Below, in pieces: positions 164 to 55,442 of a DNA stretch of 64,000 bases. The stretch is taken from the IMG/VR virus record IMGVR_UViG_3300037487_002113. One strand, written 5' to 3'. This stretch comes from an uncultured virus (IMG/VR IMGVR_UViG_3300037487_002113). Lineage: Duplodnaviria; Heunggongvirae; Uroviricota; Caudoviricetes. The stretch's first letter is position 1; every line of letters begins with the position of its first letter. The notes below the pieces were generated by a model. That model was not told the DNA's origin, made no database searches, and saw only the letters and a program-made list of their open reading frames with translations. Made by a program: the position numbers and the translations under genes.

Positions 164-505
164 ATGATGATCGAGGAGCAGAAGGGCGCGCCCTTCTCGG
201 CGGCCGAGAAGGGCGCGCCCGCGCCTGGCCCGGCGGCCGAGAAGAAGGAGGTGCTCAACGGCATCGAGTTGAGCACGATCGGCGACGGGATCGGGCTCTC
301 GGCGGCCGAGCGCTTCGCGGAGGAGCTGAACGTCCAGTACGAGGCGGACGCCAAGGTGGCGCTCGCCGGGCTGAACAAGAACCAGAAGGCGCACGCCCTC
401 GCGGCCGTCGCAAAGGCCGCGCCCAAGGACATGACCCGCGCCTTCAACGCGGGCCTCATGCGCGGCCTGCGCGCGGGGTGGGCGAAGGCCGCCGCCGCGA
501 AGTAG
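164..505 (+). CDS. Hypothetical protein, cassette 1 (C-terminal DMxRAFxxGxMRGLRAGWA motif)
   Basis: AGGAGGAG RBS before ATG 164. C-terminus is shared with 694..1083. Confidence 0.75.
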   Translation: MMIEEQKGAPFSAAEKGAPAPGPAAEKKEVLNGIELSTIGDGIGLSAAERFAEELNVQYEADAKVALAGLNKNQKAHALAAVAKAAPKDMTRAFNAGLMRGLRAGWAKAAAAK

Positions 506-542
506 TCCCGGCGGGCTCGGCGCGCGGTCGCCCGCGCTGAGC

Positions 543-669
543 CCCGCTCCCGTCCAGGCGCCACCAACTCGCCCGCCTCCGTCGCCCATCTGGGCGGCGG
601 GGGCGGGCTATCTGTGTTGTGACCACCATCACCACCGGCCAAACCGGAAGCATCGCTAAGAAGAGCAAC
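543..669 (+). repeat. Direct repeat copy 2
   Basis: Exact copy of 1..127, period 542 bp. Confidence 0.95.
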
Positions 670-693
670 AGCAAGCAACGAAAGGGGACGCGC

Positions 694-1083
694 ATGGAGA
701 AGACGAAGACGGCGACGTACTTGATCTGGCCGACGGAGCGGGGCTGGGTGCTCGCCCGGCTGCCGCAGAACCCCCGAAGGGAGGGGATCTTGGTCGGCAT
801 CTACGTGTCGCGCCGCGACGCGCGGAAGGCGCGGAGCGAGGCGATCGCGTGGCGCAGCAAGCCCGCCGCTTCGCGGCGCCGGGCGGCGGATGCGAAAACG
901 TTCGCCTTTCTGTACGCGGTCAAGCGGGCCGAGCGTGAGCGCCCGGACGTCGTCTCGCGGCAGCGCGAGGCGGTCGCGGCGAAGGCCGCCGCTGACATGG
1001 AGCGCGCGTTCGCGCGCGGCGTCATGCGCGGCCTGCGCGCAGGCTGGGCAGCGGGGCTGCCCGCGCCTGTCCCGACGAACTGA
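694..1083 (+). CDS. Hypothetical protein, cassette 2 (same C-terminal motif as 164..505)
   Basis: AAGGGG RBS before ATG 694; DMERAFARGVMRGLRAGWA tail. Confidence 0.75.
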   Translation: MEKTKTATYLIWPTERGWVLARLPQNPRREGILVGIYVSRRDARKARSEAIAWRSKPAASRRRAADAKTFAFLYAVKRAERERPDVVSRQREAVAAKAAADMERAFARGVMRGLRAGWAAGLPAPVPTN

Positions 1084-1093
1084 CAAACCACAA

Positions 1094-1133
1094 CGCGAGG
1101 TTGTCCGGGCGTGGTGCCCGTGACAACCTCGCG
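1094..1133 (+). other. Intergenic stem-loop
   Basis: CGCGAGGTTGTC...GACAACCTCGCG 12-bp arms with an inner stem, just upstream of the RBS of 1149. Confidence 0.6.
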
Positions 1134-1148
1134 AGCGGAGGATAGATC

Positions 1149-3074
1149 ATGTCCAAAAAGACGTCCAGAAGGAAGACCAGTCGCGGGTTCGAGCACCACG
1201 CGATCGACCCGCGTGACTTCGTGGTGTTCAAGCCGCGGCGCAAGCCGATCCCCGGCGTGCCGACCTTCGAGACGCTGCCGGACCGCCCCGAGGTGCTCCG
1301 CAAGGCGGAGACGCTCGAAGCCGCCGAGAAGGCGATCGGCGAGTGGCAGCAAGGCCGCTCGCGCTACGCGGCGCAGGGCCTCCACGCGGCAGCCGCCTAC
1401 GGCACCGGCGGCGTCCAGCCGACGGTGGAGGAGATGATGCGCGACCGAGAGGTCGACCCCGACGCGCCGAGCGGCGCTGACCTCGCGGCGGCGGCAGCGG
1501 AGTCGCTCGCCACGATGCGACTCCACAACCTCGCCGAGCGCGAGGCGATGGCGGAGACGCCAAGCTCCTGGGAGCGGCGCGGCCTGCGCGTGCTCTCCGG
1601 CCGCGAGCGGGCGGCGGCCGCGCGCGAGCTGGGGATCGCGGCGACAAGCCCCGCGCGCTTCGAGGAGGCCCGCGTAAGGTGGGCCGCGGCGCAGCGGAAG
1701 GAGCCGTCGTTCGAGGCGCCCACTCGCCCCGAGATGCCGATCCTGACGGACGACGAGCGCAAGCTCATGGCGCCGGAGGAGCGCGCCGCGCGCGTCGCCG
1801 CGCTCAAGGCGTGGGACGCTGCGACTCTCAAGTCGCGGCCCGAGGAGCCGATGTACGCCCCGCGCCCGCAGACGCAGGCGGACATCGGGAGCAAGGTCGA
1901 CGTGCGCAGCGGGCGCGCCATCCGCCCCGAGTCGCCTGCGTTCCGCGTAGCGGAGCAAACGACGAAGGAGAAGTACGAGCTGCTCGCGCAGAGCGAGGAC
2001 GAGGTCGACCAGGCGCTGGTGCAAATCGGCGTGGCCGACTTCATCGAAGCCGCGTGCACGAGGATCGCGCGCATCCGCGACCCGCAGCGGCGGAAGCACG
2101 AGTTCGAACGGGTGCAGGACTTCCGGGATCGGATGCACGAGTCATGGGACCCGGCGCACCTGGAGCCATACACCGAGGCGGAGTTCGCGTACGCCCTCGG
2201 GGCAATGCTTCCCGGCCGCAAGGGCACGGCGGGAGCGTTCTCCGAGGCCGTAAAGACGATCGGCACGAAGTTCGAGTTCGACGATGAGGATGGCCATCAC
2301 GTCATCTGGCTGACGGACGGCGCCGACCTCGTTCGGACGGGCGTGCTCTCGCGCTACGCCGGACAGCGCGACCTGTCGGGCGCGCTCAAGTCGGCGTACA
2401 AGTCCGCGCGCCGAGCGCGCCGCGACTTCACGCTGAGGAACGTCGAGGCCATCGAGCAGGTGATGAGCCTCGTGGTCACCCTGGGCCGTCGGCACCAGTG
2501 GTTTGACCAGGCCGTCTCCAAGTACCTCGCGGCCTCCAACCGAGGAAGGAAGGCGCTTGGCACTCTGCGCCTGGACATCTTCTTGGCGGCGGCCGAGTTC
2601 GGGTTCCAGATCCCCAAGGAAGTCGGCCCCTGGCCCGACCCGGCCATCCTCCGCGACCGCGCGGAGATGAAGGCTCGCGCGATGAGCGACGAGCCGTGGT
2701 CGATCTTCAATGAGGCGGGCAAGGCCTGGCAGATGCCCGCGACCGGCGCCGAGTCCGAAGCGCAGGCGCAGCTGGCGCGGGAGCGGTACGAGGCCTTCCA
2801 CGAGGAGTCCTCTGCGTGGGGCCCATCCTCGTCCAAGCACGAGATGCGGACGAAGGTTGCTGAGCGCGCAGCAATCCGAGGCGGGCAGCGCGCGCCGAGC
2901 CCCGCCGAGCAGCAGGCAATCCGGCAGGGGCAGACCCCGCGCGAGTACCGCAGCCCGGAGGAGGTCGCGGCGGGACGCGCGCAGGCTGAGGCCGCGCGAC
3001 TTGAGACGCTGCGCAAGGCCGCGCGCGAAATCGATGAGGCTATCGGGAAGCTGACCGATAAGTTCCGGCGGTAG
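1149..3074 (+). CDS. Large hypothetical protein (641 aa), helical, basic N-terminus
   Basis: GGAGG RBS, long ORF, no recognisable motif. Confidence 0.85.
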   Translation: MSKKTSRRKTSRGFEHHAIDPRDFVVFKPRRKPIPGVPTFETLPDRPEVLRKAETLEAAEKAIGEWQQGRSRYAAQGLHAAAAYGTGGVQPTVEEMMRDREVDPDAPSGADLAAAAAESLATMRLHNLAEREAMAETPSSWERRGLRVLSGRERAAAARELGIAATSPARFEEARVRWAAAQRKEPSFEAPTRPEMPILTDDERKLMAPEERAARVAALKAWDAATLKSRPEEPMYAPRPQTQADIGSKVDVRSGRAIRPESPAFRVAEQTTKEKYELLAQSEDEVDQALVQIGVADFIEAACTRIARIRDPQRRKHEFERVQDFRDRMHESWDPAHLEPYTEAEFAYALGAMLPGRKGTAGAFSEAVKTIGTKFEFDDEDGHHVIWLTDGADLVRTGVLSRYAGQRDLSGALKSAYKSARRARRDFTLRNVEAIEQVMSLVVTLGRRHQWFDQAVSKYLAASNRGRKALGTLRLDIFLAAAEFGFQIPKEVGPWPDPAILRDRAEMKARAMSDEPWSIFNEAGKAWQMPATGAESEAQAQLARERYEAFHEESSAWGPSSSKHEMRTKVAERAAIRGGQRAPSPAEQQAIRQGQTPREYRSPEEVAAGRAQAEAARLETLRKAAREIDEAIGKLTDKFRR

Positions 3075-3106
3075 CCGACGCGCAGCCCGCGTCAGGCCCG
3101 CTCACC

Positions 3107-3151
3107 CGCAAACGACCCGCCCTGCGCTGCACGGCGGGTCGTTTGCGTTTC
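3107..3151 (+). terminator. Hairpin + TTTC, terminator or processing site
   Basis: 15-bp perfect stem CGCAAACGACCCGCC/GGCGGGTCGTTTGCG followed by TTTC. Confidence 0.65.
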
Positions 3152-3208
3152 AACTCGCGCCGAGAGGCGATTGTCCAACGCAGGACACCCCCACCTACGG
3201 AGACTCTC

Positions 3209-3745
3209 ATGACCACCAAGACCCCCTCTCGCTTCTTCCTTCAAACCGCGTGGATGCTCGGTGCCGGACACGGGCACCACTGGGCGGCGACGGGCCCGCG
3301 CGCTGCGTGGGACGCGGGCGACCTCGCCGCGTTCGACGCGGCCATGGCCACGTTCGGCGCCGAGAACCCGGAGGACTGGGGCGGGGTCGGGCGCCCGGCA
3401 TCGTCGCCCTGGGAGCACGAGACGTGCACCAGGCGCACGTCATGGGTGCTCGACAATGAGCGCCTCACGGTGACGCTCCGCGCAGAGGGGAGCGTCACCG
3501 GCGGCGAGCTGTGGAACGGCGGCGTCTGGCAGATCGGCGCCACCATCGCGACGCTCACGCTCGACGCGCTCGCGCCGAGCATCCTCGTGGCGAAGGTCCT
3601 CGACTGGCCCCGCTGGTCGAAGGAGGGCGGCTACGGCGACACGGGCGCGTCGCGCGCCTGGCGTCTCTGCAAGGAGCTGGAGGCGAACCTCCAGCTCTCC
3701 GACGAGCGCGCAATGGGGCGCGCTCTGATGGAGAGCCGCCGTTGA
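3209..3745 (+). CDS. Hypothetical protein
   Basis: GGAGA RBS + ATG 3209. Confidence 0.7.
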   Translation: MTTKTPSRFFLQTAWMLGAGHGHHWAATGPRAAWDAGDLAAFDAAMATFGAENPEDWGGVGRPASSPWEHETCTRRTSWVLDNERLTVTLRAEGSVTGGELWNGGVWQIGATIATLTLDALAPSILVAKVLDWPRWSKEGGYGDTGASRAWRLCKELEANLQLSDERAMGRALMESRR

Positions 3746-3786
3746 CATTGTCAGAAACGCGCGGCACGCGCGTCATGGAGATACCG

Positions 3787-4011
3787 ATGCTTCCAAACAA
3801 CGAGGAGCGCGCGGCGTGGGAGGCATTTCTCCGCAGGCGCGGCGACGCCAGCGCGCTGGGCGCTGAGGAGCGCCGAGACCAAGAGCAAGAGGCGTGGGAC
3901 GCCTTTGACAGGGAGTTCGTCTGGCCGCAGCACTGGGGCGAGAGCGCCGAGTGCAAGGCCGAGCAGGTCGATGACGCGTGGAACGACCGCGCGAAAGGAA
4001 CGCAGCGATGA
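3787..4011 (+). CDS. Hypothetical protein
   Basis: GGAG RBS; stop overlaps next start (ATGA). Confidence 0.6.
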   Translation: MLPNNEERAAWEAFLRRRGDASALGAEERRDQEQEAWDAFDREFVWPQHWGESAECKAEQVDDAWNDRAKGTQR

Positions 4012-4388
4012 CCGTAACGATCGTGATCGACGAGGCCAGATACGCCGAGGCGCTCGAATCCATCGGAGACGCCTTCGAGGTGTCTCACGATGAACTCTGT
4101 CTCAAAGACGACGAGTTCATTACCGTCGAGGGGTGGCAGGACTGGGCCGTGCAGAAGTGGGAGGAGGGCCTCGACACCGCCGACGGCGGCCACCGCGTGT
4201 CCGACGCGGTCAACCGAGCCGTCGAGCAGCAGGAGCGCGGGAAGCGCGCCCGCAAGGAGCGCGTGCGCCACTCGCGGGAGGAGCGCGCGGAGCTGTACTG
4301 CCCGCGCTACGTCATGCAGGAAGAACGGCACAGCGCGTGGATGCGCGATGAGGCCGACACGGACGCCTGCAACGGCGGAAGTCCCTGA
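4008..4388 (+). CDS. Hypothetical acidic protein
   Basis: AAGGA RBS, coupled to neighbours. Confidence 0.7.
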   Translation: MTVTIVIDEARYAEALESIGDAFEVSHDELCLKDDEFITVEGWQDWAVQKWEEGLDTADGGHRVSDAVNRAVEQQERGKRARKERVRHSREERAELYCPRYVMQEERHSAWMRDEADTDACNGGSP

Positions 4389-4552
4389 TGGGACACGACA
4401 AGAAAGCGGCGGCGACGGCGGCGGGCGTCGGGCCGGGCGGGATGTCCTGCTCATGCTGCAACCTCGGGACCGGCCGCCGCACGAAGCGGGCGGTCAACAA
4501 GGCCGGCCGCCGCATCGCGAAGGCTGAGGCGAAGACCCAGGCCTCGGAATAG
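4388..4552 (+). CDS. Small basic protein with GPGGxxCxCC motif (54 aa, not in ORF track)
   Basis: TGATG coupling; translates as MGHDKK...GPGGMSCSCC... Confidence 0.6.
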   Translation: MGHDKKAAATAAGVGPGGMSCSCCNLGTGRRTKRAVNKAGRRIAKAEAKTQASE

Positions 4553-4593
4553 TCAACGCTCGCGCTCACCACCAACCGACCGGAGGATCTCTC

Positions 4594-5055
4594 ATGGCTG
4601 CAATCGTTATGTTCGCAGGTTCGCACACAGATCACGGTCTCCTCGGCGCCCACTGGGCGTTCGTCGAGAAGACCGCTACCGACCACGTCGCCGAGAAGGG
4701 CGTCACGCCCATGATCGCGACGTTCACGCTGGACGACGCGTGCCCCGACGCGATGTCCGGCATCTACGGCCCCATCGCTGGTGACCCGCCGGTGCCGGAG
4801 GCCGAGGTGCACTACGCGGTGCGCGGCGACCGGCGAGTGCGCGACCGCATGACCACGCTTCCGCCGCGTCCGACGCGTCGGCTGACCATCGTCGCGGTGC
4901 CGGAGTTCCGCGATGGCCCCGAGAAGGGCGCGCGACTCGTGTGCATCACCGCATACGGAGGGGAGCTGGCGCCCCAGCACCCGGACGACCCGCACAACCC
5001 AGACCCCGCAGCCGCGCGGGAGTTCTGGAATCAACACGCGCTCTCCGCAGGCTGA
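4594..5055 (+). CDS. Hypothetical protein
   Basis: CA-rich leader + GGAGG RBS. Confidence 0.75.
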   Translation: MAAIVMFAGSHTDHGLLGAHWAFVEKTATDHVAEKGVTPMIATFTLDDACPDAMSGIYGPIAGDPPVPEAEVHYAVRGDRRVRDRMTTLPPRPTRRLTIVAVPEFRDGPEKGARLVCITAYGGELAPQHPDDPHNPDPAAAREFWNQHALSAG

Positions 5056-5080
5056 CGCCCGCGCCAACCCCGTCACCCAG

Positions 5081-5126
5081 CGCCCGCTCGCCGCCGCCCA
5101 TTCCGGGCGCGGCGGGCGGGCGTTTC
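5081..5126 (+). terminator. Hairpin + TTTC
   Basis: Long GC stem 5081-5122 followed by TTTC. Confidence 0.6.
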
Positions 5127-5144
5127 GCATTGGAAGGAGACGAT

Positions 5145-5510
5145 ATGCAACTCGACGATCACAAGAACGTGCGGCGCAACATCCGCGAGTGGCTCACGGC
5201 GGTGAACGATGACGCGTCAGACCCCGCTCGCGACACCTACTACGTCGCGTGCGGCGTGGTCATGTGCGGCGGGATCGCCCACGAGGCGGCCGTCCAGGCG
5301 CAGGACTACAGCCTCACGCCGGAGTACGAGGACTGGTTCGCCTCGCACCGCAAGACGTGGTGCGCCGCTCTCGTGCGAGCGCTCAAGCGGCAGCGGCGCT
5401 GGGCCGCGGTCAAGAAGATGCTGATCGCCAACGTCGGTCCCGACGGCGAGACGATCATCGAGCCCGAGCACCACGCCGGTTACGTGGCATGGCTCAACTC
5501 CGTTCGCTGA
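5145..5510 (+). CDS. Hypothetical protein
   Basis: AAGGAG RBS + ATG 5145. Confidence 0.7.
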   Translation: MQLDDHKNVRRNIREWLTAVNDDASDPARDTYYVACGVVMCGGIAHEAAVQAQDYSLTPEYEDWFASHRKTWCAALVRALKRQRRWAAVKKMLIANVGPDGETIIEPEHHAGYVAWLNSVR

Positions 5511-5514
5511 AAGG

Positions 5515-6278: not shown

Positions 6279-6973
6279 CCGTCACCTTCGACGCGCGCGA
6301 CCTAGAGCGCGCCGAGTACGACATCGACCGGGTGCTTAGGCGCCCCGACTCGTACGCCCACTACGGAGACGATCGCGTCTTCGTGACGTGGTCGGTCGGT
6401 CCCGTCGTGCTCACGCGCGACTCGGAGATCATCGACCAGGCCAACTACAAGGTCTTGGTCGCGTCGCTGAGGGCCGCAGAGGAGGCTGGCGACATCGAGC
6501 CCGAGAGCTACTCACTCAACCGCGCGTCCCACTGGGCCGTGGGGTGGGTCGAGCACCTCAGCTTCATGGCCCGCGCTGAGTCCGGCGTGCACCACGTCGT
6601 GCTCGGCAAGTTCGACGACACCGAAGGCCACATCGACGTCAACGGCGAGCCCTACGGGAAGTACGGCGAGCGGTTTGCGTACGCCGTGCTCGCCGCTGAC
6701 GCAGACGACGCGATCGACGCCGTCAAGAACGGCCCGCTCGCCGGGCGCAAAGACTTCCTCATCCTCGGCACGGGGACTGGCGACGACTTCAAGGTCAACA
6801 TTCCGATCGTTGACGTGCCGCGCATGACGCGCGTCGGGCGCTGGGTCCACGCCTGGCTCAACATGCTCTCCGAGTACCCGTCGGCAGACGACAGCGTGCT
6901 CTCCGAGATGGAGAGCGAGGCGAGCTTTGAGACGGTCGAGCGCTTCGAGGCGCTCATCAAGAAGGAGGACTGA
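6275..6973 (+). CDS. Conserved phage hypothetical protein (HWAVGWVE motif)
   Basis: TRDS..NY, HWAVGWVE and YP..DD..LSEME motifs, recalled from phage hypotheticals. Confidence 0.7.
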   Translation: MTVTFDARDLERAEYDIDRVLRRPDSYAHYGDDRVFVTWSVGPVVLTRDSEIIDQANYKVLVASLRAAEEAGDIEPESYSLNRASHWAVGWVEHLSFMARAESGVHHVVLGKFDDTEGHIDVNGEPYGKYGERFAYAVLAADADDAIDAVKNGPLAGRKDFLILGTGTGDDFKVNIPIVDVPRMTRVGRWVHAWLNMLSEYPSADDSVLSEMESEASFETVERFEALIKKED

Positions 6974-6974
6974 T

Positions 6975-7253: not shown

Positions 7254-7254
7254 C

Positions 7255-7698: not shown

Positions 7699-8339
7699 TG
7701 CCGACCTTCACGGTGTCCGGGGACATCACGTTCCCGTTCGTCACGTCGGTCGAGGCCGGGTCGGCCGAGGAGGCTGAAGACCTCGTGGCGGCGCAGCACC
7801 CGCTAGCCATTCCGTACGACACGAGCGTGGCGGGCGCGCTCGTGAGCGTGGATGACGTCATTCCCGACGAGCCCGCGTCGCCCGCGCCTGTCCCGGCAAG
7901 CCCGGTCGACGAGATCCTGTCGCTGCTCAACGGCAGCGGCGTCACCAGCAACAATCCCACCAACAAAAAAGACGGAGATACCATGAGCAGATTCAAGATC
8001 GTCGGGACGATTCTCGAAGACTTCGAGGTCGTCATCGAGGCCGATAGCGAGGCCGACGCGCGGCGGGTGATCCTTAAGACGCCCTTGGAGGACCTGCGCC
8101 TGCACAAGCAGTACGAGCAGACCGACGTCGCGCTGACGCTCGTCTCTGTCGAGCCGGAGGTGGCGCCTTACAACGTGACCGGGACGGTCACGATCGAGTT
8201 CACGGTCAAGGTGGACGCCGAGTCCGCGGAGGCGGCGGTCGACCTCGTCCGGGACATGAGTCTCCGGGAGATTCAGCGGTCGGCCGACGTCGACGAGGAA
8301 ACCGTCAAAGTCCTCGACGACGCCGCGGAGCCGGCGTGA
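7698..8339 (+). CDS. Protein with three DpnD/PcfM-like repeats (internal start at 7983 possible)
   Basis: Three [FY]xVxG......V.VEA.S.E.A repeats. Confidence 0.65.
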   Translation: MPTFTVSGDITFPFVTSVEAGSAEEAEDLVAAQHPLAIPYDTSVAGALVSVDDVIPDEPASPAPVPASPVDEILSLLNGSGVTSNNPTNKKDGDTMSRFKIVGTILEDFEVVIEADSEADARRVILKTPLEDLRLHKQYEQTDVALTLVSVEPEVAPYNVTGTVTIEFTVKVDAESAEAAVDLVRDMSLREIQRSADVDEETVKVLDDAAEPA

Positions 8340-8542
8340 TGGCCGCGCCGAGCCTGGCGTTCGCGCCGTACGTGGCGGAGGCGGGGTCATACCTCACCGC
8401 CGCTGGAAACTTCTCGAAGACGCGCGGCCTCGCCGTGCGCTTCAGGTCGATCGAAGAGGCCGAGGCGTTCGTCTGCCGCGTGGCAGCGAAGAACGCCTTG
8501 GTCGACAAGGCGCAGATCCTCATCTGCGCATGGAAGGAGTAG
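8336..8542 (+). CDS. Hypothetical protein
   Basis: GTGA overlap; F.SIEEAE motif. Confidence 0.55.
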   Translation: MMAAPSLAFAPYVAEAGSYLTAAGNFSKTRGLAVRFRSIEEAEAFVCRVAAKNALVDKAQILICAWKE

Positions 8543-8543
8543 C

Positions 8544-8969
8544 ATGAACAAGGACACGATCGCCTCCCTCGCCCCGATGGCGAACATCAACGGCTACTCT
8601 GACAGCGCCGCCGCCGTCAAGAGGTCGTTCCACTCGTTGGGACGCAAGCTCCTCAAGGACCTCGCGAATGATCTGGGCCTGACGCCCGGCTCGTACGAGA
8701 TCCGTTCCAACCTGGGAGGCATCGCCGTCTGCGGCGAGGTCACCCTCCACAGCGACAATCTGTACGTGCAGCTCTCGGACAACATGGGCGCAGGTGCACG
8801 GGTCCTGTACCGCACCTGCAAGTCGCGGCGCGACTACTGCGGTGGCATGAACCACTGGATGTCCATCTCGCGGATGGCCGTCGCGGAGGAGAGTTTCGTC
8901 GGCCACTGCCGCGCGCTGATGCAGAGCAGCGCGCTCGCGAAGCCCGCGCAAGGTCCGGCCGCGCGGTGA
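8544..8969 (+). CDS. Conserved phage/plasmid hypothetical protein (IRSNxGGIAVxGEVTLH family)
   Basis: Recalled motif FH..GRKLLK.LA..LGL..GSYEIRSNLGGIAVCGEVTLH; AAGGAG RBS. Confidence 0.75.
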   Translation: MNKDTIASLAPMANINGYSDSAAAVKRSFHSLGRKLLKDLANDLGLTPGSYEIRSNLGGIAVCGEVTLHSDNLYVQLSDNMGAGARVLYRTCKSRRDYCGGMNHWMSISRMAVAEESFVGHCRALMQSSALAKPAQGPAAR

Positions 8970-10922: not shown

Positions 10923-11293
10923 CCGCCCGCGCTGGGTCCGGCGGCACCGCGTACGCCGCGCGCCGCGCCGTGCAGCGCCACTTCGTGGCGAAAATGGACA
11001 AGGAGGTGACGGATTCGCTCGCTGACGCGATGTGGAACCTTCACTACGGTCCGAGCGGTGGCGGCAGGAGCTACGAGACGTGCCTCACGACGCTTCGCGC
11101 GTGGTCCGAGAGCACCCTGAACGACGCCTACTACGACGTCCAGAGCGGCGAGGTGCTCGAATCCGAGCCGCAGAGCTGGGAAGACGAGGACGGCAACGTC
11201 GTCGAGCCCAACACGGACGACTACATGCGCTTCGACGTGTCTGACGTGAAGCGCCTGATGTTCGCGGACTTGATCGCACACGGTGGATTCTGA
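10919..11293 (+). CDS. Hypothetical acidic protein
   Basis: GTGA overlap; alternative ATG at 10994. Confidence 0.6.
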   Translation: MTARAGSGGTAYAARRAVQRHFVAKMDKEVTDSLADAMWNLHYGPSGGGRSYETCLTTLRAWSESTLNDAYYDVQSGEVLESEPQSWEDEDGNVVEPNTDDYMRFDVSDVKRLMFADLIAHGGF

Positions 11294-11949: not shown

Positions 11950-13140
11950 ATGACCAACGAAGTTCGCGGAGCCAATACCGACTCAGAGGCCGCACGCCGC
12001 CAGGCCGCCGACACGCGGATCGCAGCAGACCCCTACGGCGACACGTTCGAGCACTTCGCTCGGTTCTGCCGTTCGTACACCGGCAGCAGCTTCCTGGATT
12101 CGGGTAGCGCCTACGGCTACACGTACAACCGGCCGATGCGCGCGAAGGACGCTCCGGCGATGCGCGCCGAGCGCGAGACCTACCGCGGCGCGACGCACGA
12201 GGAGTGGTTCGAGCGGATGCGAGATCTCTCGGACCTCGACGAGCACGAGCCCGTGCGCCTCTCGGACCTCGGCAAGAACTCCCCGTGCGAGATGACCGCT
12301 CACGTCTCGCTGGAGCACTGGATGGCGCACCACCTCCAGGCTTCCGACGAGACGCGCTGGCTCAACAGGCTGTACGCCTGGTGGGAAAGCAACCTCAACG
12401 ACAGCGCCAGGTCGTTCGACACGGAGGAGTTCGTCAAGTGGGCGCAGGCGGCGCGCGCGGCGTCGCTTCACGACACGGAGCCGCGAGGCGCCGAAGACGA
12501 GACGCATCCCGAAAGCGAGCAGCGCGCGGCCCGCGTCAAGCTCGTCCGCTCCGTGACCGACCACGACGCGCGGCGCGACCTGCTCGCGCTCCTCAAGGAG
12601 GAAGACGACGGCGGATTCTTCGACGTGCTGCTCGAATACGACGAGGAGATCGAGCACGTCGCGTCGGGCAACACCTACAACGACGACAACGACCTCAGCC
12701 AAGACCTCCAGTGGCACGCGTTCGGCCCTGAGCGCCGAGACTTCTACGGCGTGAAGCTCCTGGCGGTTCAGCCGCACTGTGGCTGCGACGCGCGCGGCGG
12801 CTATCCGCAGCCTCGCTGGTACAGCGTCGACGGCAGCGACGGCGACTGGACCAGCTGGCGGACGACCTTCTGGATCGGCGAAGGCAACGACATGGAATCG
12901 GAGCACCTCCGCTTCGTGCCGCTCGACTGGTGGCGCACGCAGCGGCCCGACGTCGACACGCTGACGCTTCCCGGCGTCGCCAAGGCGCCGAACCCCGATG
13001 ACTGGGACGAGTCGTGCGCGACCATCGTCGCGGACGAGAACGGTGAGAAGTGGATTCTCATCTACATCGGCGGCCACCGCTGGAGCAACGACCCGGTCGG
13101 CAGCTGCAACATCCGGTACTCGTGCGGAGAGCTGTCGTGA
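11950..13140 (+). CDS. Conserved phage hypothetical protein (FLDSG.AYG / NTYN..LSQ / H.G.D.RGGY family)
   Basis: Recalled motifs; AAGGAG RBS. Confidence 0.8.
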   Translation: MTNEVRGANTDSEAARRQAADTRIAADPYGDTFEHFARFCRSYTGSSFLDSGSAYGYTYNRPMRAKDAPAMRAERETYRGATHEEWFERMRDLSDLDEHEPVRLSDLGKNSPCEMTAHVSLEHWMAHHLQASDETRWLNRLYAWWESNLNDSARSFDTEEFVKWAQAARAASLHDTEPRGAEDETHPESEQRAARVKLVRSVTDHDARRDLLALLKEEDDGGFFDVLLEYDEEIEHVASGNTYNDDNDLSQDLQWHAFGPERRDFYGVKLLAVQPHCGCDARGGYPQPRWYSVDGSDGDWTSWRTTFWIGEGNDMESEHLRFVPLDWWRTQRPDVDTLTLPGVAKAPNPDDWDESCATIVADENGEKWILIYIGGHRWSNDPVGSCNIRYSCGELS

Positions 13141-16507: not shown

Positions 16508-16791
16508 AGAACGGCAAGAAGAAGGGCCCGCGCCAGGCCCGGCCGACCGGGCTCGGCAACGACGCGACCGAGTTCCTGCGCGAGCAGGAGGCGGCGAAGG
16601 CCAACCCGTGCGCCAGCGGCCACAAGCCCGACTGGCACAAGGCCGCGTTCGCCGACTCCCTTCCGGGCAACGGGGGCGGCTGCATCGTCACGATCCCATG
16701 CTCTCGCTGCGACGAAGAGGCTGGCATTCTCATCGACGATTCTGCGATCGAGTGGAGCAACGACACGCTCGCGAAGGGAGCACGGTCATGA
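16504..16791 (+). CDS. Hypothetical protein with C..H..CxxC..W module
   Basis: CASGHKPDW...IPCSRC...IEW; AAGGAGG RBS. Confidence 0.75.
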   Translation: MKNGKKKGPRQARPTGLGNDATEFLREQEAAKANPCASGHKPDWHKAAFADSLPGNGGGCIVTIPCSRCDEEAGILIDDSAIEWSNDTLAKGARS

Positions 16792-18276: not shown

Positions 18277-19082
18277 ACGACTACCCGATCGAACGCATCG
18301 TGCTCGCGTGCTCCAAAGACCCGACGCACGCTCGCTTCGGAGCGCAGGCGACCGTGGTCGAAAACTGGATCGTCGACCCGGAAGGCGACTACGTGGAGTC
18401 GACTGGGACCGGAGACGTCGTGGACGGCCCAGACCTCAACGAATACAGCGTCTGCAACGAGTGCGGAGCCGACGCGCTCGTCGGCGACGACGCGCGCGAG
18501 TTCTTGCGCAAACACCAACAGAAGGAAGCGACCGTGACCACGACCACCGACGAAAAGAGCGGCCCGCAGCAGGTCCGGCCGACCCCGCTGGCCGACGATG
18601 AAGATCTGGAAAGCATCTCCGACGCCTACATCAGAGCGTTCGGCTGGGACCTCGTGCGCGCCAGACGCAGCTTTCACCAGAGCACGGCCCTGGTGATCGC
18701 CGTGCATGGTGAGGATATGACTGTTCGCGAGTTTTCCGACGTGAGCAAAGCGTTCATGTCTAACGCGCCGCTGTTCGACCCGCGCATCACGCTCGACGTC
18801 GACGCGCCCGAGCTGGAACTGCACATCAGCTGGCTGGCGCGTCAGATCAACGTGTTGCCGCGTGAAATCGCGCTGGAGATGTACAACGAGAAGATCTGCG
18901 ACGTGCGCAAGCGCCACGGGCTGCTCGGGTGCGATGGCAGCCACGACCCCGACTGGTCCAAGGCTGAGTTCGCGGACGGCTTCAGCGCGCACGGGGTGCT
19001 CGTGTCCGTTCCGTGCAAGAAGTGCGAAACCGAATCGGCCGTGACCGTCCACGCCGATATGCTTGTCTGGGAGGACGCATGA
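18273..19082 (+). CDS. Fusion of family C copy 2 with a C..H..CxxC..W module protein (internal GTG 18534)
   Basis: N-terminus resembles 18007; C-terminus resembles 16504. Confidence 0.7.
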   Translation: MNDYPIERIVLACSKDPTHARFGAQATVVENWIVDPEGDYVESTGTGDVVDGPDLNEYSVCNECGADALVGDDAREFLRKHQQKEATVTTTTDEKSGPQQVRPTPLADDEDLESISDAYIRAFGWDLVRARRSFHQSTALVIAVHGEDMTVREFSDVSKAFMSNAPLFDPRITLDVDAPELELHISWLARQINVLPREIALEMYNEKICDVRKRHGLLGCDGSHDPDWSKAEFADGFSAHGVLVSVPCKKCETESAVTVHADMLVWEDA

Positions 19083-21355: not shown

Positions 21356-21406
21356 GCCCGCGCTGGGTCCGGCTCCGTCAACCATCATCAGCAAAGAGAA
21401 ACGACC

Positions 21407-24525: not shown

Positions 24526-24717
24526 ATGCACCACCTACGCGAAGACATCCAAGAGCTGATCAACAAGCAGGGCTGGGACGAGCAGAGCCTCATCCTGCTC
24601 ATGTCCAACTTCATCAACGACAACGAGCTGACCGACAAACTCGCGGAGTTTCTCGAAGACGCAGCCGACGAGGAGAACGCCGGCTTCCCTGACGACGAGG
24701 GCGACGACGGGGAGTAG
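24526..24717 (+). CDS. Small acidic protein
   Basis: AAGGGA RBS. Confidence 0.65.
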   Translation: MHHLREDIQELINKQGWDEQSLILLMSNFINDNELTDKLAEFLEDAADEENAGFPDDEGDDGE

Positions 24718-24780
24718 CCCGCGCCTGGCCCGGCGGCGCAAATCAGTGCCGCCGGGCTCCCGGAAAGAGTTGAAAGACGC

Positions 24781-27400: not shown

Positions 27401-29187
27401 GCAAAATCGAAGAGATGCGCAGGAAGCTGCTGGCCAAGAACGGAAAGCAGGAGGCGATCAAAGCGATCGACTCCTACGACCGCATGACGAAGCTGCGTCG
27501 CGACGCTGAAGGTCGCGACGTCTCGTCTCTACTCGACGCCGTCGCGTCGCGCGGCAAGGGCACGTCGTTCGTCGACTGGGTCGACGCGGCTATCTTCCGG
27601 GTCACGGAGCTTTACCCGGAGTTCTCGCGTCTGATCTACAACATGACCATCGTGCAGGCCGACGGGCTGCGCACCTGCGCGCTCGACTCGGCCGCGCGGC
27701 TCTACATCGACCCCATCCTCAAGGACGGGTTCGATGACATCCCTGGCTACACGTTCGGAGAGCTGTCGTACGTGCTCGCGCACGAGTGCCTGCACTGGAT
27801 GGAGGAGCACTTCGACAGGTCGCTGGCGATCGGCGCGACGGGCATGACGGCCAACATCGGAGCCGACTTGGAGATCGAGTCGAATCTGATCGATGACGTG
27901 AAGCTCTACGGAGCCTATCGCGAGCGCGGATCACATGAGCGCGTAAGCGACTGGGCGCAGGTCAGGTCACCCAAGCCCGGAGGGGTCTGGTCCATGCCGA
28001 AGTACGCGCGCTGGCCGCGCGGAAAGACCTTCGAGTGGTACTACGCGAAGCTCGTCGAAGAGGCCGAGGAGGAAGCCAAGAAGAATCAGCCGCCGCCGCA
28101 AGAGGACGACGAGAAAGACGACGAGAAAGACGACGAGCCACGCGAGGACGTCGACGAGACCGACGACGGCGACGGAGACGGCGACGAACCCGGCGACCAG
28201 GACGGCGACGGTGACGGTGACGGCGACGGCGACCAGGACGGCGACGGCGACGGTGACGGCGACGGCGACGGAGACGGCGACGAACCCGGCGACCAGGACG
28301 GCGACGGTGACGGTGACGGCGAAGGTGACGCCCGCGTTGGGTCCGGCGCCGGAAAACCGGCGCCGGAGCCCTGGAACGGCAAGCCCATTCAGTGCAAGCC
28401 TCACAAGGGCGACCACGGGTCTGTTGTCGACGGGATTCCGCGGGAGTACGAGCTGCCTGCGCCCGACGGGGACAAGATCCCCGGCATCACTCCGATCGAA
28501 GCGGAGGGCATCCGCAGGGAGATCGCCGCGGCCATCCTCGAAGGCGTTGGCCGCAGCGCCGGGAGTCTCGGCGCTCGGCGCCTGGCCGATCGCATCCTGG
28601 CAGTACCGCAGGTGTCCTGGGAGTCGCGGCTCGCCGCGGTCATCCAAGAGTCCTCGGACGAGCCGCGAAGCGGCACGAGCGACTACACGTGGGCGCGACG
28701 TGCGCGCCGACAGTCGGCCATACCCGACTTCATCATCCCAGGCACCGAGGCCAACTCGCCGAGCATCGCGTTCGTGCGGGACACGTCTGGCAGCATGAGC
28801 AACCAGATGCTCGGGTCCGTCAACAAGCACGGCGACATGATCCTCATGGCGCTCGACCTTGATGGCGTACACGTCGTTGACTGCGACGGAGACGCCTTCT
28901 CGCCGAAGCTCGTGCGCTCGCTGAGCGACTACCAGCCCACCGGCGGAGGCGGCACCGATATGCGCCTCGGCATCAGCGCGGCGCTCGCCATCGCCCCGCG
29001 ACCGAAGACGATCATCGTCTTCACCGACGGCGACACCCCGTGGCCCGAGCGCGCGCCCACCGGGGTGCGCATCGCGGTCGTGCTCGTCCCGAACACCGGG
29101 AACTCGAAGGTGAGCCAGGGCATCGTGAAAGCGGTGCCGAGCTGGATCACCACGATCGTTGCAGAGCCGCACGCAGCGGCGAGATAG
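27397..29187 (+). CDS. DUF2201-type protein: HExxH metallopeptidase + acidic linker + vWA domain
   Basis: LAHECLH, NIGADLEI; MIDAS DTSGSM, GGGGTDM, FTDG. Confidence 0.88.
   Translation: MSKIEEMRRKLLAKNGKQEAIKAIDSYDRMTKLRRDAEGRDVSSLLDAVASRGKGTSFVDWVDAAIFRVTELYPEFSRLIYNMTIVQADGLRTCALDSAARLYIDPILKDGFDDIPGYTFGELSYVLAHECLHWMEEHFDRSLAIGATGMTANIGADLEIESNLIDDVKLYGAYRERGSHERVSDWAQVRSPKPGGVWSMPKYARWPRGKTFEWYYAKLVEEAEEEAKKNQPPPQEDDEKDDEKDDEPREDVDETDDGDGDGDEPGDQDGDGDGDGDGDQDGDGDGDGDGDGDGDEPGDQDGDGDGDGEGDARVGSGAGKPAPEPWNGKPIQCKPHKGDHGSVVDGIPREYELPAPDGDKIPGITPIEAEGIRREIAAAILEGVGRSAGSLGARRLADRILAVPQVSWESRLAAVIQESSDEPRSGTSDYTWARRARRQSAIPDFIIPGTEANSPSIAFVRDTSGSMSNQMLGSVNKHGDMILMALDLDGVHVVDCDGDAFSPKLVRSLSDYQPTGGGGTDMRLGISAALAIAPRPKTIIVFTDGDTPWPERAPTGVRIAVVLVPNTGNSKVSQGIVKAVPSWITTIVAEPHAAAR
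28165..28322 (+). repeat. (GAC GGY)n Asp-Gly low-complexity tract with a 62-bp direct repeat
   Basis: 28165-28226 equals 28261-28322. Confidence 0.9.
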
Positions 29188-33243: not shown

Positions 33244-33569
33244 AGATCGCTAACTCACGCTCACTGTTCAGCCACGTTCACAGCAGCGCTCTCGACGCCG
33301 CGTCCGCGGCCGCGTTCACGAAAAAGGCCGGTGCCCGCGTTGGGCCCGGCGATGAGCTGCGGCTCTATGTAGACAAGGACGGCGTCCCGGCGCAGGCGCT
33401 GCTCATTCGGTGCAAAGACGAATGCGCTGTGGCGTACAGCGAGGAGTCGGGGTTTCTGTGGGGCATGCTCGTGGAGATCGGGTCACGCGCCATCCTGGTG
33501 GGCGACGGAGATCCACACGTCATCATCGACCTGCAAGACCTGTCCTTCACCTGCGAGCGCGTGTCATGA
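33240..33569 (+). CDS. Hypothetical protein
   Basis: AAGGAG RBS. Confidence 0.6.
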   Translation: MKIANSRSLFSHVHSSALDAASAAAFTKKAGARVGPGDELRLYVDKDGVPAQALLIRCKDECAVAYSEESGFLWGMLVEIGSRAILVGDGDPHVIIDLQDLSFTCERVS

Positions 33570-37423: not shown

Positions 37424-37909
37424 ATGAGCGACCTGAACTTTCGATACGGCGGACGAGACCTCAACAGCCCCGAGGCTGGCAACGCACCGACGCGGGAGGT
37501 GCTGCCGAAGGGCAAGTACGTCTGCAAGATCGTCGACATCAAGGCGGGGCTGACGAAGCAGACGCCTCCGCAACCCAAGATGGTTGTGGAGTTCATGGTG
37601 CTGACTGACGAGTCGGGCTCCCGCGCCATGTCCGGCAAGCGCGTCTTCCAGGACTACATGCTGAATCCCGAGGTCCGGGGAGACGGCAACGACTTCCAGA
37701 CGTACCGGCTGCGCGGGCTGCTCAGCGCCTGCCAGGTGCCGGTTGTCAGCAACCAGTTCGACGCGCAGCCGATGATTGGGCAGGACGTGCTGGTCACCGT
37801 CACGCACCGCTTCGGCAACCCTGGCCCCGACGGTAAGATCCCGACGTTCACGAACGTCGAGACCGTAGACCGCGTCGCCGGGGCGGGTGACGCTGGAGAC
37901 ATCCTGTGA
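37424..37909 (+). CDS. DUF669-family (SSB-like OB-fold) protein
   Basis: LPKGKY.CKI.D......M.VEF.V....GK.VF. Confidence 0.75.
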   Translation: MSDLNFRYGGRDLNSPEAGNAPTREVLPKGKYVCKIVDIKAGLTKQTPPQPKMVVEFMVLTDESGSRAMSGKRVFQDYMLNPEVRGDGNDFQTYRLRGLLSACQVPVVSNQFDAQPMIGQDVLVTVTHRFGNPGPDGKIPTFTNVETVDRVAGAGDAGDIL

Positions 37910-48001: not shown

Positions 48002-48004
48002 GCG

Positions 48005-53034: not shown

Positions 53035-53115
53035 TCTGACCACCTGGCAGCAGCAGCCGGCCCACCAGCCGGCCGCTGCTGCTTGTAGGCTTCTTCCCAA
53101 GACAAGGCGCGTGAC

Positions 53116-54801
53116 GTGGCAGAGCAGCCTCTAAAAATCGTCAACGGTACGATCTCCGACTTCGCGACCACAGACGTCGCGCTCGTCGGCGGCGTGCTCG
53201 CGAAGACGTCTACCGGCGTCAACGCGCCCGGCAACGACCTCACGGTCATCGGCGGCGCAGCGACGCCCGCCGGGACCGGCGCTGGCGGCGCAGCGCGCAT
53301 CACCGGCGGCGCCGCCGGAACGACAGCCGCCGCGCTCGCTGGCGGCAACGTGATCATCACAGGCGGCGCGACCAGCGGGACTGGCGCAGGCGCCCTGCCT
53401 GGCGGTGTCGTGCTGGAGACGACGCGCACCGCGACAAGCACGGCGGCGGTCGCCGACGGGCCGGTGCTCACGCTGACGCAGCCTGCGCTGACGGTGGGCG
53501 TGTTTGCTGGGGCCTCAGATCCGTCCGCCGGGTCCGGCGTCGTCGCGAACGCAGGCTCCCTCTACCTTCGGCAGTCGGGCGGCGTTGGGTCGATGTACCT
53601 CAAGACCGGCGCCGCGAACACGGCGTGGTCGGTAGACGTTTCGCCCGTGCTTGAGGGGAGCACGCTTCGCGTCGACGCCGTCAACGGCAGCGACACTACA
53701 GGCACACGCGGGGACTTTGCCCGTCCGTTCAAAACGATTACTGCGGCGCTAAATGCGTCTTCAGCGAACGACCTGATCCAAGTCGGCCCCGGCACGTTCG
53801 TCGAGGCGCCGTTCACCATGCCAGTGAATCGGACCATCTGTGGCTCGTTCCCGCTGCGGACGAAGATCCAGTACACGGCTACCGCGGCCTGCACGTTCGT
53901 CACGATGTCCGCTGGGTCCGTCTTACGGTCGGTAAAGATCGAGCTGCTCAGCGACACCACGGCACGCACCCCGCTCATTGGCGTGCTGTTTCCAGGCACG
54001 GTCAGCAACGCGTACCTGCAAGACGTTCACGTCATCGTCGACAATAGCAACGTGACATCCGGCCTCACGGACGTAACCGGCGTGTCCTTCACGACGACCG
54101 GAGATTACGCATCAGAGGACGCCATCTTTGACGTCGCGATCGACGTGCGAAGCGTGTTCACTGGCGCCAAGCGCGGCATCGTGAACAGTGGCGTAGGCAA
54201 CCATGTACACGTGGCAGAGGTCTCGTGTACGCTGGTTTCGCCCGGATCGGTGAACGCAATCAATATCGAGGCCGTCGACGGAATCTTTGCCATCTCATCG
54301 AGCCGCGTCCACGTGTCTCCGGTGGCAGCCGGAAACGCCAATATCTCTGCGAAGCTCAACACTCCGTCAAGCCTGCGCATTGGCGCCGTAGACCTTGAGG
54401 AGTCCTCGTGTAATGGCAGGGCGTTCGTGTCGTCTGGTCAGCTTGGTACGATGGTCTTCTCCGATATTGGGGGTCAAAATGGCACCCTCTACCTTCAGGC
54501 CGGTGGCGACTCTAACGGGGCCATCGAGAGCATTGCGCGCTTCCGTATAGCGCGGGCTTGTATCGTTCAGACGTTGAGCTGCCAGGTGCAAACCGCACCT
54601 AGCGGTGGCTCTGTCGTATACACTGTCCGCAAGAACAGTGCGCCCATGACTCTGACTGCTACTATTACTACGGGCACGTTAGTCGCAACAGACCTGAACA
54701 ACGCCGTCGAGTTTGCGGCTAATGACTATATTTCGATTCAGAGAATCGGAACCGGAAGCGCGAGCAACGCCCAGGTCACGATCGAGATGTCCGCATGGTA
54801 G
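53116..54801 (+). CDS. Fibre/spike protein with beta-helix (pectin-lyase-like) domain
   Basis: N-terminus resembles 49777; VD..NGSD.TG.....PF.TI.AAL....D.I.VGPG.F cap motif. Confidence 0.75.
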   Translation: MAEQPLKIVNGTISDFATTDVALVGGVLAKTSTGVNAPGNDLTVIGGAATPAGTGAGGAARITGGAAGTTAAALAGGNVIITGGATSGTGAGALPGGVVLETTRTATSTAAVADGPVLTLTQPALTVGVFAGASDPSAGSGVVANAGSLYLRQSGGVGSMYLKTGAANTAWSVDVSPVLEGSTLRVDAVNGSDTTGTRGDFARPFKTITAALNASSANDLIQVGPGTFVEAPFTMPVNRTICGSFPLRTKIQYTATAACTFVTMSAGSVLRSVKIELLSDTTARTPLIGVLFPGTVSNAYLQDVHVIVDNSNVTSGLTDVTGVSFTTTGDYASEDAIFDVAIDVRSVFTGAKRGIVNSGVGNHVHVAEVSCTLVSPGSVNAINIEAVDGIFAISSSRVHVSPVAAGNANISAKLNTPSSLRIGAVDLEESSCNGRAFVSSGQLGTMVFSDIGGQNGTLYLQAGGDSNGAIESIARFRIARACIVQTLSCQVQTAPSGGSVVYTVRKNSAPMTLTATITTGTLVATDLNNAVEFAANDYISIQRIGTGSASNAQVTIEMSAW

Positions 54802-54820
54802 TCGCCCCCCCGCTCCGCAG

Positions 54821-54849
54821 TTGACATCGTCCGACAGCGTGGGTAGTTT
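54821..54849 (+). promoter_or_regulatory. Sigma-70-like promoter
   Basis: TTGACA-17-TAGTTT. Confidence 0.55.
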
Positions 54850-54909
54850 CGTTCGCGACGCGAGGGCGCCCACTCTCCCGATGCCCGCGTCGCCAGGAGA
54901 TCTGCGACC

Positions 54910-55284
54910 ATGAAGAAGACGAAGAACCCGTTCAAGAACGTCACCCCGTCTAAGGTCCCGGACCCGCCGAGGGCCGTGCCGAGGACAGCATCCGCACCGA
55001 AGTCGCCGAAGGCGCCGCCCGCCGCAGCGCCCGCCGCAGCAGCTCCCGCCGCGCCCGCAGCGCTGGCCGGCAACGAGTTCGCGATCGAAGCGCAAGACGC
55101 CACGATCGTCCAGCTCGCCGAGGAGCGTCTCCAGAACGCGCAGCTGCACGCGCAGAACCGCAAGAACGAGCGAGACTCCTTGCTGGAGCAGGTGCGCACG
55201 AAGTACCAAGAGGGCGGCAAGTACGTGATGACGAGCATCGACATCGGTCGTGGCGTCATCGAGCGGCACCTCGCCGGGGCCTGA
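54910..55284 (+). CDS. Hypothetical protein, Pro/Ala-rich N-terminus + coiled coil (possible fibre chaperone)
   Basis: AGGAG RBS; C-terminal coil ending IDI.RG.I. Confidence 0.65.
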   Translation: MKKTKNPFKNVTPSKVPDPPRAVPRTASAPKSPKAPPAAAPAAAAPAAPAALAGNEFAIEAQDATIVQLAEERLQNAQLHAQNRKNERDSLLEQVRTKYQEGGKYVMTSIDIGRGVIERHLAGA

Positions 55285-55288
55285 AACA

Positions 55289-55442
55289 CCCCGCTGCACC
55301 AGGCGCACAGGGCTCGGCGGGCGCGAAAGACGCCTGCTGAGCCAGCGCTTGGCAGCCCGCGGCTAGCCCGGCTACCGGCTCGTTCGGAGCGCTCCCGTCG
55401 CGTATCCATCTGCGGACGCAGCGGCGAGGGGATTTTTTCTTG
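55289..55442 (+). ncRNA. Candidate multi-stem structured RNA or complex terminator
   Basis: Closing stem CCCCGCTGC/GCAGCG..GGGG, 13-bp GAAA-capped stem, U-tract. Confidence 0.3.

Follow-up and report, generated by a model that had tools for sequence, protein, structure and literature searches.

A strand-specific bipartite motif at gene ends in an uncultured Caudoviricetes lineage shares its layout with the nick-associated sites of phiKMV-like phages

It has been known for some 50 years that phage DNA can carry programmed nicks, and in the account of PMC11780129 neither the enzyme responsible nor the purpose is established. Phage tf carries 14 nick sites at TACT/RTGMC, all on a single strand, with 11 of the 14 in the left half and at similar places in relatives, and the nick motif of T5 is R/GCGCRGG (both as given in PMC3517423). 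In Rembedalsseter, 13 nicks lie at WACTRTGAC, a word described as common to 61 phages (PMC11780129). For the phiKMV-like phages, the nick-associated consensus is quoted as 5'-CGACNNNNNCCTA/CTCCGG-3' (Kulakov et al. 2009, quoted in PMC3517423 and bioRxiv 10.1101/619015) and, with its spacer written out, as CGACxxxxxCCTA/CTCCGG (PMC3517423). Here, we describe a motif of comparable layout, GCCCGCG-N5-YCCGGC, in a stretch of 64,000 nucleotides (nt) from an uncultured virus of the Caudoviricetes (IMG/VR record IMGVR_UViG_3300037487_002113). This stretch, which represents part of the genome, is referred to below as the window. An earlier inspection of the letters (the sequence-only reading) had drawn attention to the motif and proposed that it was either a recombination or cassette-shuffling site, or an oriented protein-binding site analogous to the stoperators of mycobacteriophage L5.

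The phiKMV-like sites can be examined in the GenBank records, where CGAC-N5-CCTACTCCGG occurs three times in phiKMV and four times in positions 2500-25500 of the LUZ19 record, on the gene strand in all cases (3/3 and 4/4). Six of these seven sites start 0-1 nt past a stop codon, namely that of gp12, gp20 (ORF20 in phiKMV) or gp31, and these six lie some 33-60 nt ahead of the next start codon. The records annotate them as phage-specific promoters. In the RNA-seq data reported for LUZ19, the motif was the sole detectable intergenic one and was unrelated to transcript abundance (PMC3604761), and Cappable-seq is reported to show that the phage polymerase uses another promoter motif, of 20 bp, at other places (PMC10914365). 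The promoter annotation of the phiKMV motif is therefore not borne out.

In the window, GCCCGCG-N5-YCCGGC occurs 11 times on the + strand and not at all on the - strand, at the positions given in the sequence-only reading (217, 6569, 7880, 8942, 10925, 16526, 21356, 24717, 28330, 33333, and 55355). That reading had estimated about 0.1 copies per strand by chance; 100 dinucleotide-preserving shuffles gave 0.06, and never more than one. The excess also held against a codon-preserving control, in which synonymous codons were permuted among the 105 predicted genes, keeping proteins and codon usage, and the spacers were shuffled: 1000 such shuffles contained a mean of 0.26 copies on the + strand (largest 3) and 0.11 on the - strand (largest 2). 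The five near copies proposed earlier were all present as well, with one mismatch at 530, 1059, 18562, and 37619 and two at 3085. When up to two mismatches were allowed, 44 matches were obtained (31 on the + strand, 13 on the - strand) where 27.3 were expected, and most two-mismatch matches are thus due to chance. A weight matrix was derived from the exact copies, and all sites scoring at least 12 bits were taken as the window family. This family comprises 19 sites on the + strand, against 2 on the - strand (11 and 0 at 20 bits or more), and adds to the exact copies eight weaker ones, including those at 5057, 8341, and 12529. No other enriched word was found in the window by k-mer enrichment under a maximal-order Markov model. 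The 19 sites are as follows:

217..234, + strand: exact copy, GCCCGCGCCTGGCCCGGC, inside gene 77-505, read as PAPGPA
530..547, + strand: near copy (1 mismatch, 19.0 bits), intergenic, 24 nt past the stop at 505
1059..1076, + strand: near copy (1 mismatch, 18.2 bits), ending 7 nt ahead of the stop of gene 619-1083
3085..3102, + strand: near copy (2 mismatches, 12.9 bits), 10 nt past the stop at 3074
5057..5074, + strand: near copy (1 mismatch, 14.2 bits), 1 nt past the stop at 5055
6569..6586, + strand: exact copy inside gene 6275-6973, read as ARAESG
7880..7897, + strand: exact copy inside gene 7698-8339, upstream of the DpnD/PcfM domain
8341..8358, + strand: weak copy (2 mismatches, 12.2 bits) that may be chance, 1 nt past the stop at 8339
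8942..8959, + strand: exact copy ending 10 nt ahead of the stop of gene 8544-8969, with a 319-nt spacer next
10925..10942, + strand: exact copy, 2 nt past the stop of gene 10323-10922
12529..12546, + strand: weak copy (2 mismatches, 13.9 bits) that may be chance, mid gene
16526..16543, + strand: exact copy, 22 nt into gene 16504-16791 (GPRQARP) and 18 nt past the previous stop
18562..18579, + strand: near copy (1 mismatch, 15.5 bits) in the linker of mosaic gene 18273-19082
21356..21373, + strand: exact copy from the first base past the stop codon 21353-21355, with the next start codon 33 nt on
24717..24734, + strand: exact copy overlapping the stop codon of gene 24526-24717
28330..28347, + strand: exact copy inside the DUF2201 metallopeptidase/VWA gene, at the 3' end of an acidic tandem-repeat linker
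33333..33350, + strand: exact copy inside predicted gene 33240-33569
37619..37636, + strand: near copy (1 mismatch, 13.6 bits) inside the DUF669 gene
55355..55372, + strand: exact copy, intergenic, 70 nt past the stop at 55284, with a hairpin upstream (55311-55343) and a T-run hairpin on the other side

The strand bias extends beyond the window. Thirteen related loci, all stretches of JGI contigs (cited below by L numbers), were retrieved via the MoxR ATPase encoded in the window, and they carry 14 exact copies on the + strand and none on the - strand, which brings the total to 25 and 0. At a matrix score of at least 11 bits, eight of these loci contain 18 sites on the + strand and one on the - strand. 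A motif scan of IMG/VR was uninformative, with one match in each of the loci listed. The spacing is strictly N5, as other spacers of 0-15 nt give at most one independent + site each across the window and the 13 loci; the one notable departure is in L121-L125, where the orthologue of the copy at 24717 is a variant with N10.

Comparison of orthologous places indicates what is being conserved. The copy at 21356 is kept at 17 of 18 positions in L121 and L123-L125, while the spacer past it has diverged. Orthologues of the copy at 10925 are found in L131, L132, and L133, 1 nt past the same stop codon; all 13 specified positions are identical, the spacer is different, and the downstream sequence is unrelated. 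The copy at 28330 is kept in L124, L125, and L127 though the surrounding linkers cannot be aligned, and it is absent in L130-L132. In five lineages, spacers directly upstream of a start codon cannot be aligned except for a single conserved core, formed by the motif or a degenerate version of it. Orthologous sites differ from one another in the spacer and at the Y position, with the other 12 specified positions unchanged. The motif is thus real, selected, and lineage-wide. Since it is read in all three frames, also lies between genes, and is kept at orthologous places despite divergent flanks, the constraint is on the nucleic acid and not on the protein, as had been proposed. The pattern is that of selection with single sites gained and lost.

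The sites are not placed at random relative to genes, and the earlier suggestion of a link to gene ends and domain junctions proved statistically sound. Six of the 19 have their first base between -1 and +12 nt from a stop codon (2.3% expected, p = 3e-6), among them the three exact copies said to abut stops (10925 at +2, 21356 at 0, and 24717 at -1). For ten, a gene start or stop is no more than 30 nt away (17% expected, p = 0.0005), and six are not wholly within a gene (8.3% expected, p = 0.0035). Most are also found in the left part of the window, which we infer from gene content and order to be the early region: 17 of 19 sites lie in the first 33.4 kb (p = 0.0007), as do 10 of the 11 exact copies (binomial p = 0.009), again as noted before. 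The window and the related loci have 21 exact sites of unique context, a count that takes orthologues separately and covers about five independent positions. Nine of these sites are found -1 to 18 nt past the stop of a long open reading frame (ORF) with high third-position G+C, five fall inside long ORFs, and seven received no assignment under this strict criterion. On the present gene model, seven of the nine spacers of at least 50 nt in the left 25 kb have a copy at or just before their 5' edge. In such long spacers the copy sits at that edge or within the final codons of the preceding gene (1059, 8942, 24717, 3085, and 5057), and precedes any hairpin or promoter. Some of this placement is to be expected: the fixed halves of the motif cannot contain a stop codon, and tolerance in linkers and at gene ends therefore follows for any DNA signal of such length. 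Mid-gene copies encode linker-like peptides (PAPGPA, ARVGSG, and GPRQARP). Tolerance alone does not account for how closely copies adjoin stop codons.

Several copies have hairpins as neighbors. Those at 530, 1059, 3085, and 5057 are followed within 4-23 nt by very stable ones (z -3.3 to -4.5): a 17-bp stem with a T-rich tail at 571-608, a strong hairpin at about 1094-1133, a terminator-like hairpin at 3107-3147, and another terminator-like hairpin (z -3.3), respectively. The 3' half of the copy at 24717 forms the 5' arm of a hairpin at 24727-24758, and that of the copy at 28330 is also a hairpin arm. Together, the hairpins by 530, 1059, 3085, 5057, 24717, and 55355 have z-scores of -2.1 to -4.5, several with T-rich tails. 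The geometry varies, in that the hairpin may lie 12 nt upstream, overlap the 3' half, or follow at 4-23 nt, and the copies at 21356, 10925, and 8942 have no structure (z +1.8, +1.0, and -0.1). We read hairpins and copies as elements that probably share a location, the boundaries of transcription units, and not as a single element. One of the two larger spacers without a copy in the left 25 kb, at 10238-10323, has a hairpin with a 17-bp stem and a T-containing tail (10251-10288).

The most natural reading of the motif is an asymmetric recognition site for a protein, in which the centers of the half-sites GCCCGCG and YCCGGC would be about one helical turn apart; the fixed N5 geometry fits a protein reading duplex DNA across one turn. 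To this extent, the earlier proposal of an oriented protein-binding site appears apt. The reader is most economically taken to be a phage protein that recognizes duplex DNA asymmetrically. Beyond this, we tentatively favor, with less than even confidence, the interpretation that the motif is a nick or recognition site of a phage-encoded strand-specific DNA enzyme, comparable to the programmed nick sites of phiKMV. Such a protein would read both half-sites on duplex DNA and break one of the two strands at a set position, leaving nicks that would remain in packaged DNA as localized single-strand interruptions like those mapped in phiKMV-like phages, tf, and T5. This interpretation draws on the restriction of copies to one strand, the fixed N5, the selection at the DNA level, the layout shared with phiKMV, the tf-like concentration toward the left, and the failure of the promoter reading for the phiKMV motif itself.

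A number of points weigh against nicking. All genes of the window are on the + strand, so that orientation with respect to a DNA strand and with respect to transcription cannot be separated. No nuclease, nickase, or ligase was recognized among the 103 predicted proteins scanned (of 105 genes). The half-sites differ from those of phiKMV, likeness being limited to the N5 layout and a common YCCGG, and tblastn found no protein common to the window and phiKMV. The motifs of tf, Rembedalsseter, and T5 are contiguous words of 7-9 nt, none of which, on a reading of the consensus, occurs within the motif described here. The tf-type 9-mer is reported to lie in genes in 88% of cases, like the coding density, and hence to lack the enrichment outside genes that is seen here (PMC11780129). 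According to the papers in question, moreover, the phiKMV nicks are on the "non-coding strand", whereas the consensus in its printed form is found on the gene strand of the GenBank records. Least compatible with nicking is the co-location with hairpins: terminator-like neighbors and the preference for the 5' edge of spacers are not explained by it and would fit a transcription-linked role better.

Such a role is at the heart of the alternative that holds up best, a stoperator-like system, which we consider possible but less probable. In this case, a DNA-binding protein of the phage (a heterodimer, or a monomer with two domains) would occupy the sites and exert an orientation-dependent effect on elongating RNA polymerase, resulting in shut-off or punctuation of the early region. 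L5-type repressors provide the precedent, as they are described to bind as monomers to asymmetric 13-bp sites, with two domains in successive major grooves, and reversal of the site abolishes repression (PMC9283540). Cluster A stoperators (those of L5 gp71 and of the TipsytheTRex repressor) resemble the sites described here in being asymmetric, numerous, and oriented with transcription, and they are preferentially located in short intergenic spaces (PMC9283540). Enrichment at gene ends and the copies at seven of nine larger spacers, some just before terminator-like hairpins, agree with this as well. In contrast, stoperators are contiguous, occur genome-wide in temperate phages, and include one site over the early promoter, whereas 18 of the 19 sites here lie within the left 38 kb, with a single copy beyond, 8 of 19 are mid gene, and none covers a recognizable early promoter. 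A consensus scan found no sigma-70-type site in 1-20000. The sole host-type promoter recognized is a sigma-70-like one at about 24779-24808 (TTGCGT/TTGACT ... TAGTGAGYATAG), upstream of the MoxR ATPase gene and some 45 nt past the copy at 24717; it is conserved at aligned places in L121-L125, L129, and L131, and this promoter-like word is not repeated in the window.

Searches with Pfam, PHROGs, and NCBIfam found in the window neither a repressor of the L5 type, with a helix-turn-helix (HTH) and a stoperator domain, nor an integrase. The stoperator analogy raised earlier stays a live rival. The search for a regulator did return one candidate DNA binder, a 62-amino acid (aa) protein with an excisionase-type HTH encoded at 36027-36215. 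A second possible binder is the protein encoded directly upstream of the copy at 21356 (20318-21355), in which residues 22-110 gave winged-helix matches (Z 6-8) that are within background. Profile searches gave no sequence match in the PDB, and its predicted structure (pLDDT 73.6) gave no Foldseek match at E <= 0.001; for this protein and for that encoded at 1149-3074, only sub-threshold Atlas rows were obtained. The winged-helix-like domain of the modeled protein is therefore at best a weak lead as the candidate reader.

An element acting at the level of RNA, such as a site for a processing, stability, or anti-termination factor between cistrons of a polycistronic early transcript, would account for the restriction to the sense strand, the position directly behind stop codons, and the hairpins 4-23 nt downstream of four copies or sharing an arm with two others. 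We nonetheless deem it unlikely, given the variable geometry and the unstructured copies described above and the lack of a common fold. When 44-nt stretches beginning 4 nt before the YCCGGC half were folded, those of 21 copies were no more stable than those of 170 other YCCGGC sites (p = 0.36), and no Rfam family matched at E <= 1. Stretches of 58 nt centered on the copies were more stable than random ones (-22.4 versus -16.9 kcal/mol), a difference to which we give no weight because the motif itself is over 80% G+C. The arms, described earlier as quasi-palindromic, are self-complementary at 10 of 18 positions of the consensus, a weak symmetry that yields no consistent fold. Rigid bipartite spacing without pairing is, moreover, unusual for RNA sites.

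The motif could also be all or part of a promoter at which a phage-specific RNA polymerase or sigma factor starts transcription of early or middle genes, being repeated, oriented, conserved, and upstream of genes, with several copies 12-33 nt before a ribosome-binding site or start codon; a sigma factor gene is present at 63333-63791. This is very unlikely. Eight copies lie inside genes, 215-858 nt upstream of the next start, several are directly followed by terminator-like hairpins, and no gene for a single-subunit RNA polymerase was found in this part of the genome. Among the public sequencing runs listed as containing the stretch, none is of RNA. The 7-N5-6 layout does not match the -35/-10 spacing of sigma-70 or extracytoplasmic function (ECF) promoters. 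The look-alike phiKMV motif, too, was annotated as a promoter and, according to the two transcriptome papers, later shown to be otherwise (PMC3604761, PMC10914365).

The left part of the window is mosaic, both among relatives and among strains, as seen in contigs from four public runs. Near the copies at 10925 and 24717, at a distance of no more than about 30 nt, homology to relatives breaks off, and one strain contig joins 24737 to 10075. The copies at 21356, 28330, and 12529 lie in uninterrupted homology with relatives. Compared with L124, three of six window sites fall in non-aligned gaps, which make up about 35% of the compared stretch and so imply no enrichment. Gene 16504-16791 is absent from L124, and this insertion has its junction in the region of the start codon and ribosome-binding site, some 20 nt upstream of the copy at 16526. 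Among the approximately 54 strain joint ends listed, some four lie within 30 nt of a copy (~3% expected). On the whole, the breaks do not fall at the motif, and scans with Pfam, PHROGs, and NCBIfam found no recombinase among the window proteins. Repeated motifs and stem-loops at gene boundaries in variable early regions are also a feature of the PeSL promoter-terminator cassettes of T4-like phages, which are described to mediate module shuffling (PMC2839356, PMC4122927). PeSLs are sigma-70 early promoters with stem-loops; the motif described here, in contrast, lacks a promoter consensus, does not include a hairpin as a constant component, and is not the point on which breakpoints center. Integron attC and Xer/dif-like sites have inverted arms around a region of about 28 bp or longer and a nearby recombinase; the motif spans 18 bp and lacks such arms. 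For a tyrosine or serine recombinase, a site of 18 bp without inverted arms is too small. A role in recombination, as the target of a dedicated recombinase or as a short homology driving module exchange, is therefore highly improbable despite the mosaicism, the perfect direct repeat 1-127 = 543-669, and the PeSL precedent, and the notion that the motif built the mosaic is not supported.

The direct repeat is of interest by itself. It is 127 nt long, reaches the first base of the window, and may extend further to the left. Within it lie a hairpin with a 17-bp stem (29-66 = 571-608) together with the T-rich tail of that hairpin, as well as the opening 17 codons of the paralogous genes 77-505 and 619-1083, whose overall identity is 37%. 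This suggests a recent exchange between adjacent modules and hints at occasional exchange via short repeated spacer sequences. Gene 77-505 also contains a perfect 37-nt palindrome with 18-nt arms (184-220), which covers the first four bases of the copy at 217. Further paralogous and mosaic early genes form a block at 16028-19435: genes 16028-16507 and 17612-18010 are 65% identical, genes 17180-17536 and 19079-19435 are 74% identical, and gene 18273-19082 combines a domain like 18007-18276 with a C-terminal piece like 16504-16791.

The window as a whole has a G+C content of 64-71%, and third-position G+C places all real genes on the + strand. The gene model comprises 105 genes, with coding sequence making up 94.5%, and no tRNA was found in the window. 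In content the stretch resembles a phage. Recognized genes encode Sipho_Gp157, DUF669, an AEP primase, a RadD/SNF2-type helicase with intein signatures, the MoxR ATPase and the DUF2201 metallopeptidase/VWA protein, a methyltransferase, an amidase, and an M23 peptidase, along with proteins with tail-fibre-like repeats. The left 24 kb is filled with small genes without known function, of which a few matched families:

6975-7253, + strand: DUF3846 domain (family match)
7698-8339, + strand: gene with a DpnD/PcfM domain (family match)
13423-13797, + strand: DUF4120 domain (family match)

We take these three families to be typical of the leading regions of conjugative elements and of anti-defence islands, and they are odd neighbors for phage replication and tail genes. 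In the helicase gene (38838-42374), both N- and C-terminal intein splicing signatures were detected (Pfam Intein_splicing, TIGR01445, and TIGR01443), and their order suggests that there may be more than one intein insertion. Three tandem paralogous genes at 46893-48586 (about 175-195 aa, 31-34% identical) have no assigned function and precede a gene for a protein of 1085 aa. A tail-fibre-like gene (55824-57827) contains tandem repeats of 54 nt (6.4 copies, 56043-56408) and 30 nt (8.7 copies, 57016-57276). The DUF2201 metallopeptidase/VWA gene contains hypervariable tandem-repeat linkers (acidic, Gly-rich, or Pro-rich) that are different in each lineage, with arrays at 28105-28330 in the window, 15189-15337 in L124, and 17107-17203 in L127. 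The array ends 0-1 nt from the motif copy in the window and L124, and 59 nt before it in L127.

No close relative of this virus was found in the collections of isolate phages, IMG/VR viruses, and species genomes. Megablast with 24 kb of the window found none among isolate phages, scans of IMG/VR with the MoxR ATPase, the helicase, and an alignment (A1) found none there, and a scan with the same alignment found none among species-genome contigs. The 1085-aa protein and a 781-aa protein had no tblastn match in phages, nor did the latter in plasmids. The MoxR ATPase has solely remote matches in N4-like phages and actinobacterial plasmids (23-32% identity), and metagenomic relatives at 60-82% identity.

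Against this background, the comparison with programmed nick sites can be drawn more closely. Like the motifs of tf, Rembedalsseter, and T5, the motif described here is found on one strand, is concentrated in one part of the genome, and is conserved across distant relatives. The phiKMV-like phages belong to the Autographiviridae and have their own RNA polymerase and ligase, families of which neither was found in this part of the genome. They carry 3-4 sites per 43 kb, compared with 11-19 per 64 kb here, and lack the many copies within genes and the clustering in the early region; their nicks have been mapped, whereas those at the sites here are predicted. Because the half-sites differ and tblastn detects no shared protein, the likeness is one of kind and possibly convergent. 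One could go further and suppose that unrelated phages have convergently placed N5-bipartite nickase sites behind stop codons as a form of gene-end punctuation, and that the nicks seed repair synthesis and recombination, driving repeat expansion and the turnover of anti-defence cassettes. This would place cassette turnover in the early region, which enters first, and the linker arrays at 28165-28330 and, in L124, at 15303-15337, both of which end at the motif, could then be products of nick-driven expansion next to a site. We consider this extended scenario quite unlikely.

For the favored interpretation as nick sites, the consequences are more modest. If the motif is a true nick marker, the phenomenon extends to a large uncultured GC-rich lineage of freshwater and sediment that is unrelated to phiKMV by tblastn, and the motif supplies a sequence rule by which more such sites may be spotted in metagenomes. 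If it is instead a roadblock or regulatory site, it would represent a stoperator-like system outside actinophages. In either case, the motif can serve as bait for finding its reader protein. The earlier description of the motif as a candidate for an undescribed system was too strong, as the phiKMV-like nick consensus has the same layout. Both are bipartite with an N5 spacer, 18-19 bp in length, located on the gene strand behind stop codons, and conserved in place, and in both cases phages and hosts are GC-rich. The copy at 21356, with its succession of stop codon, motif, 33 nt, and start codon, is nearly superimposable on the phiKMV sites at 13986 and 24128. If the nick reading is correct, this stop-abutting N5 layout has recurred independently, which would argue for gene-end placement being a functional feature and no accident.

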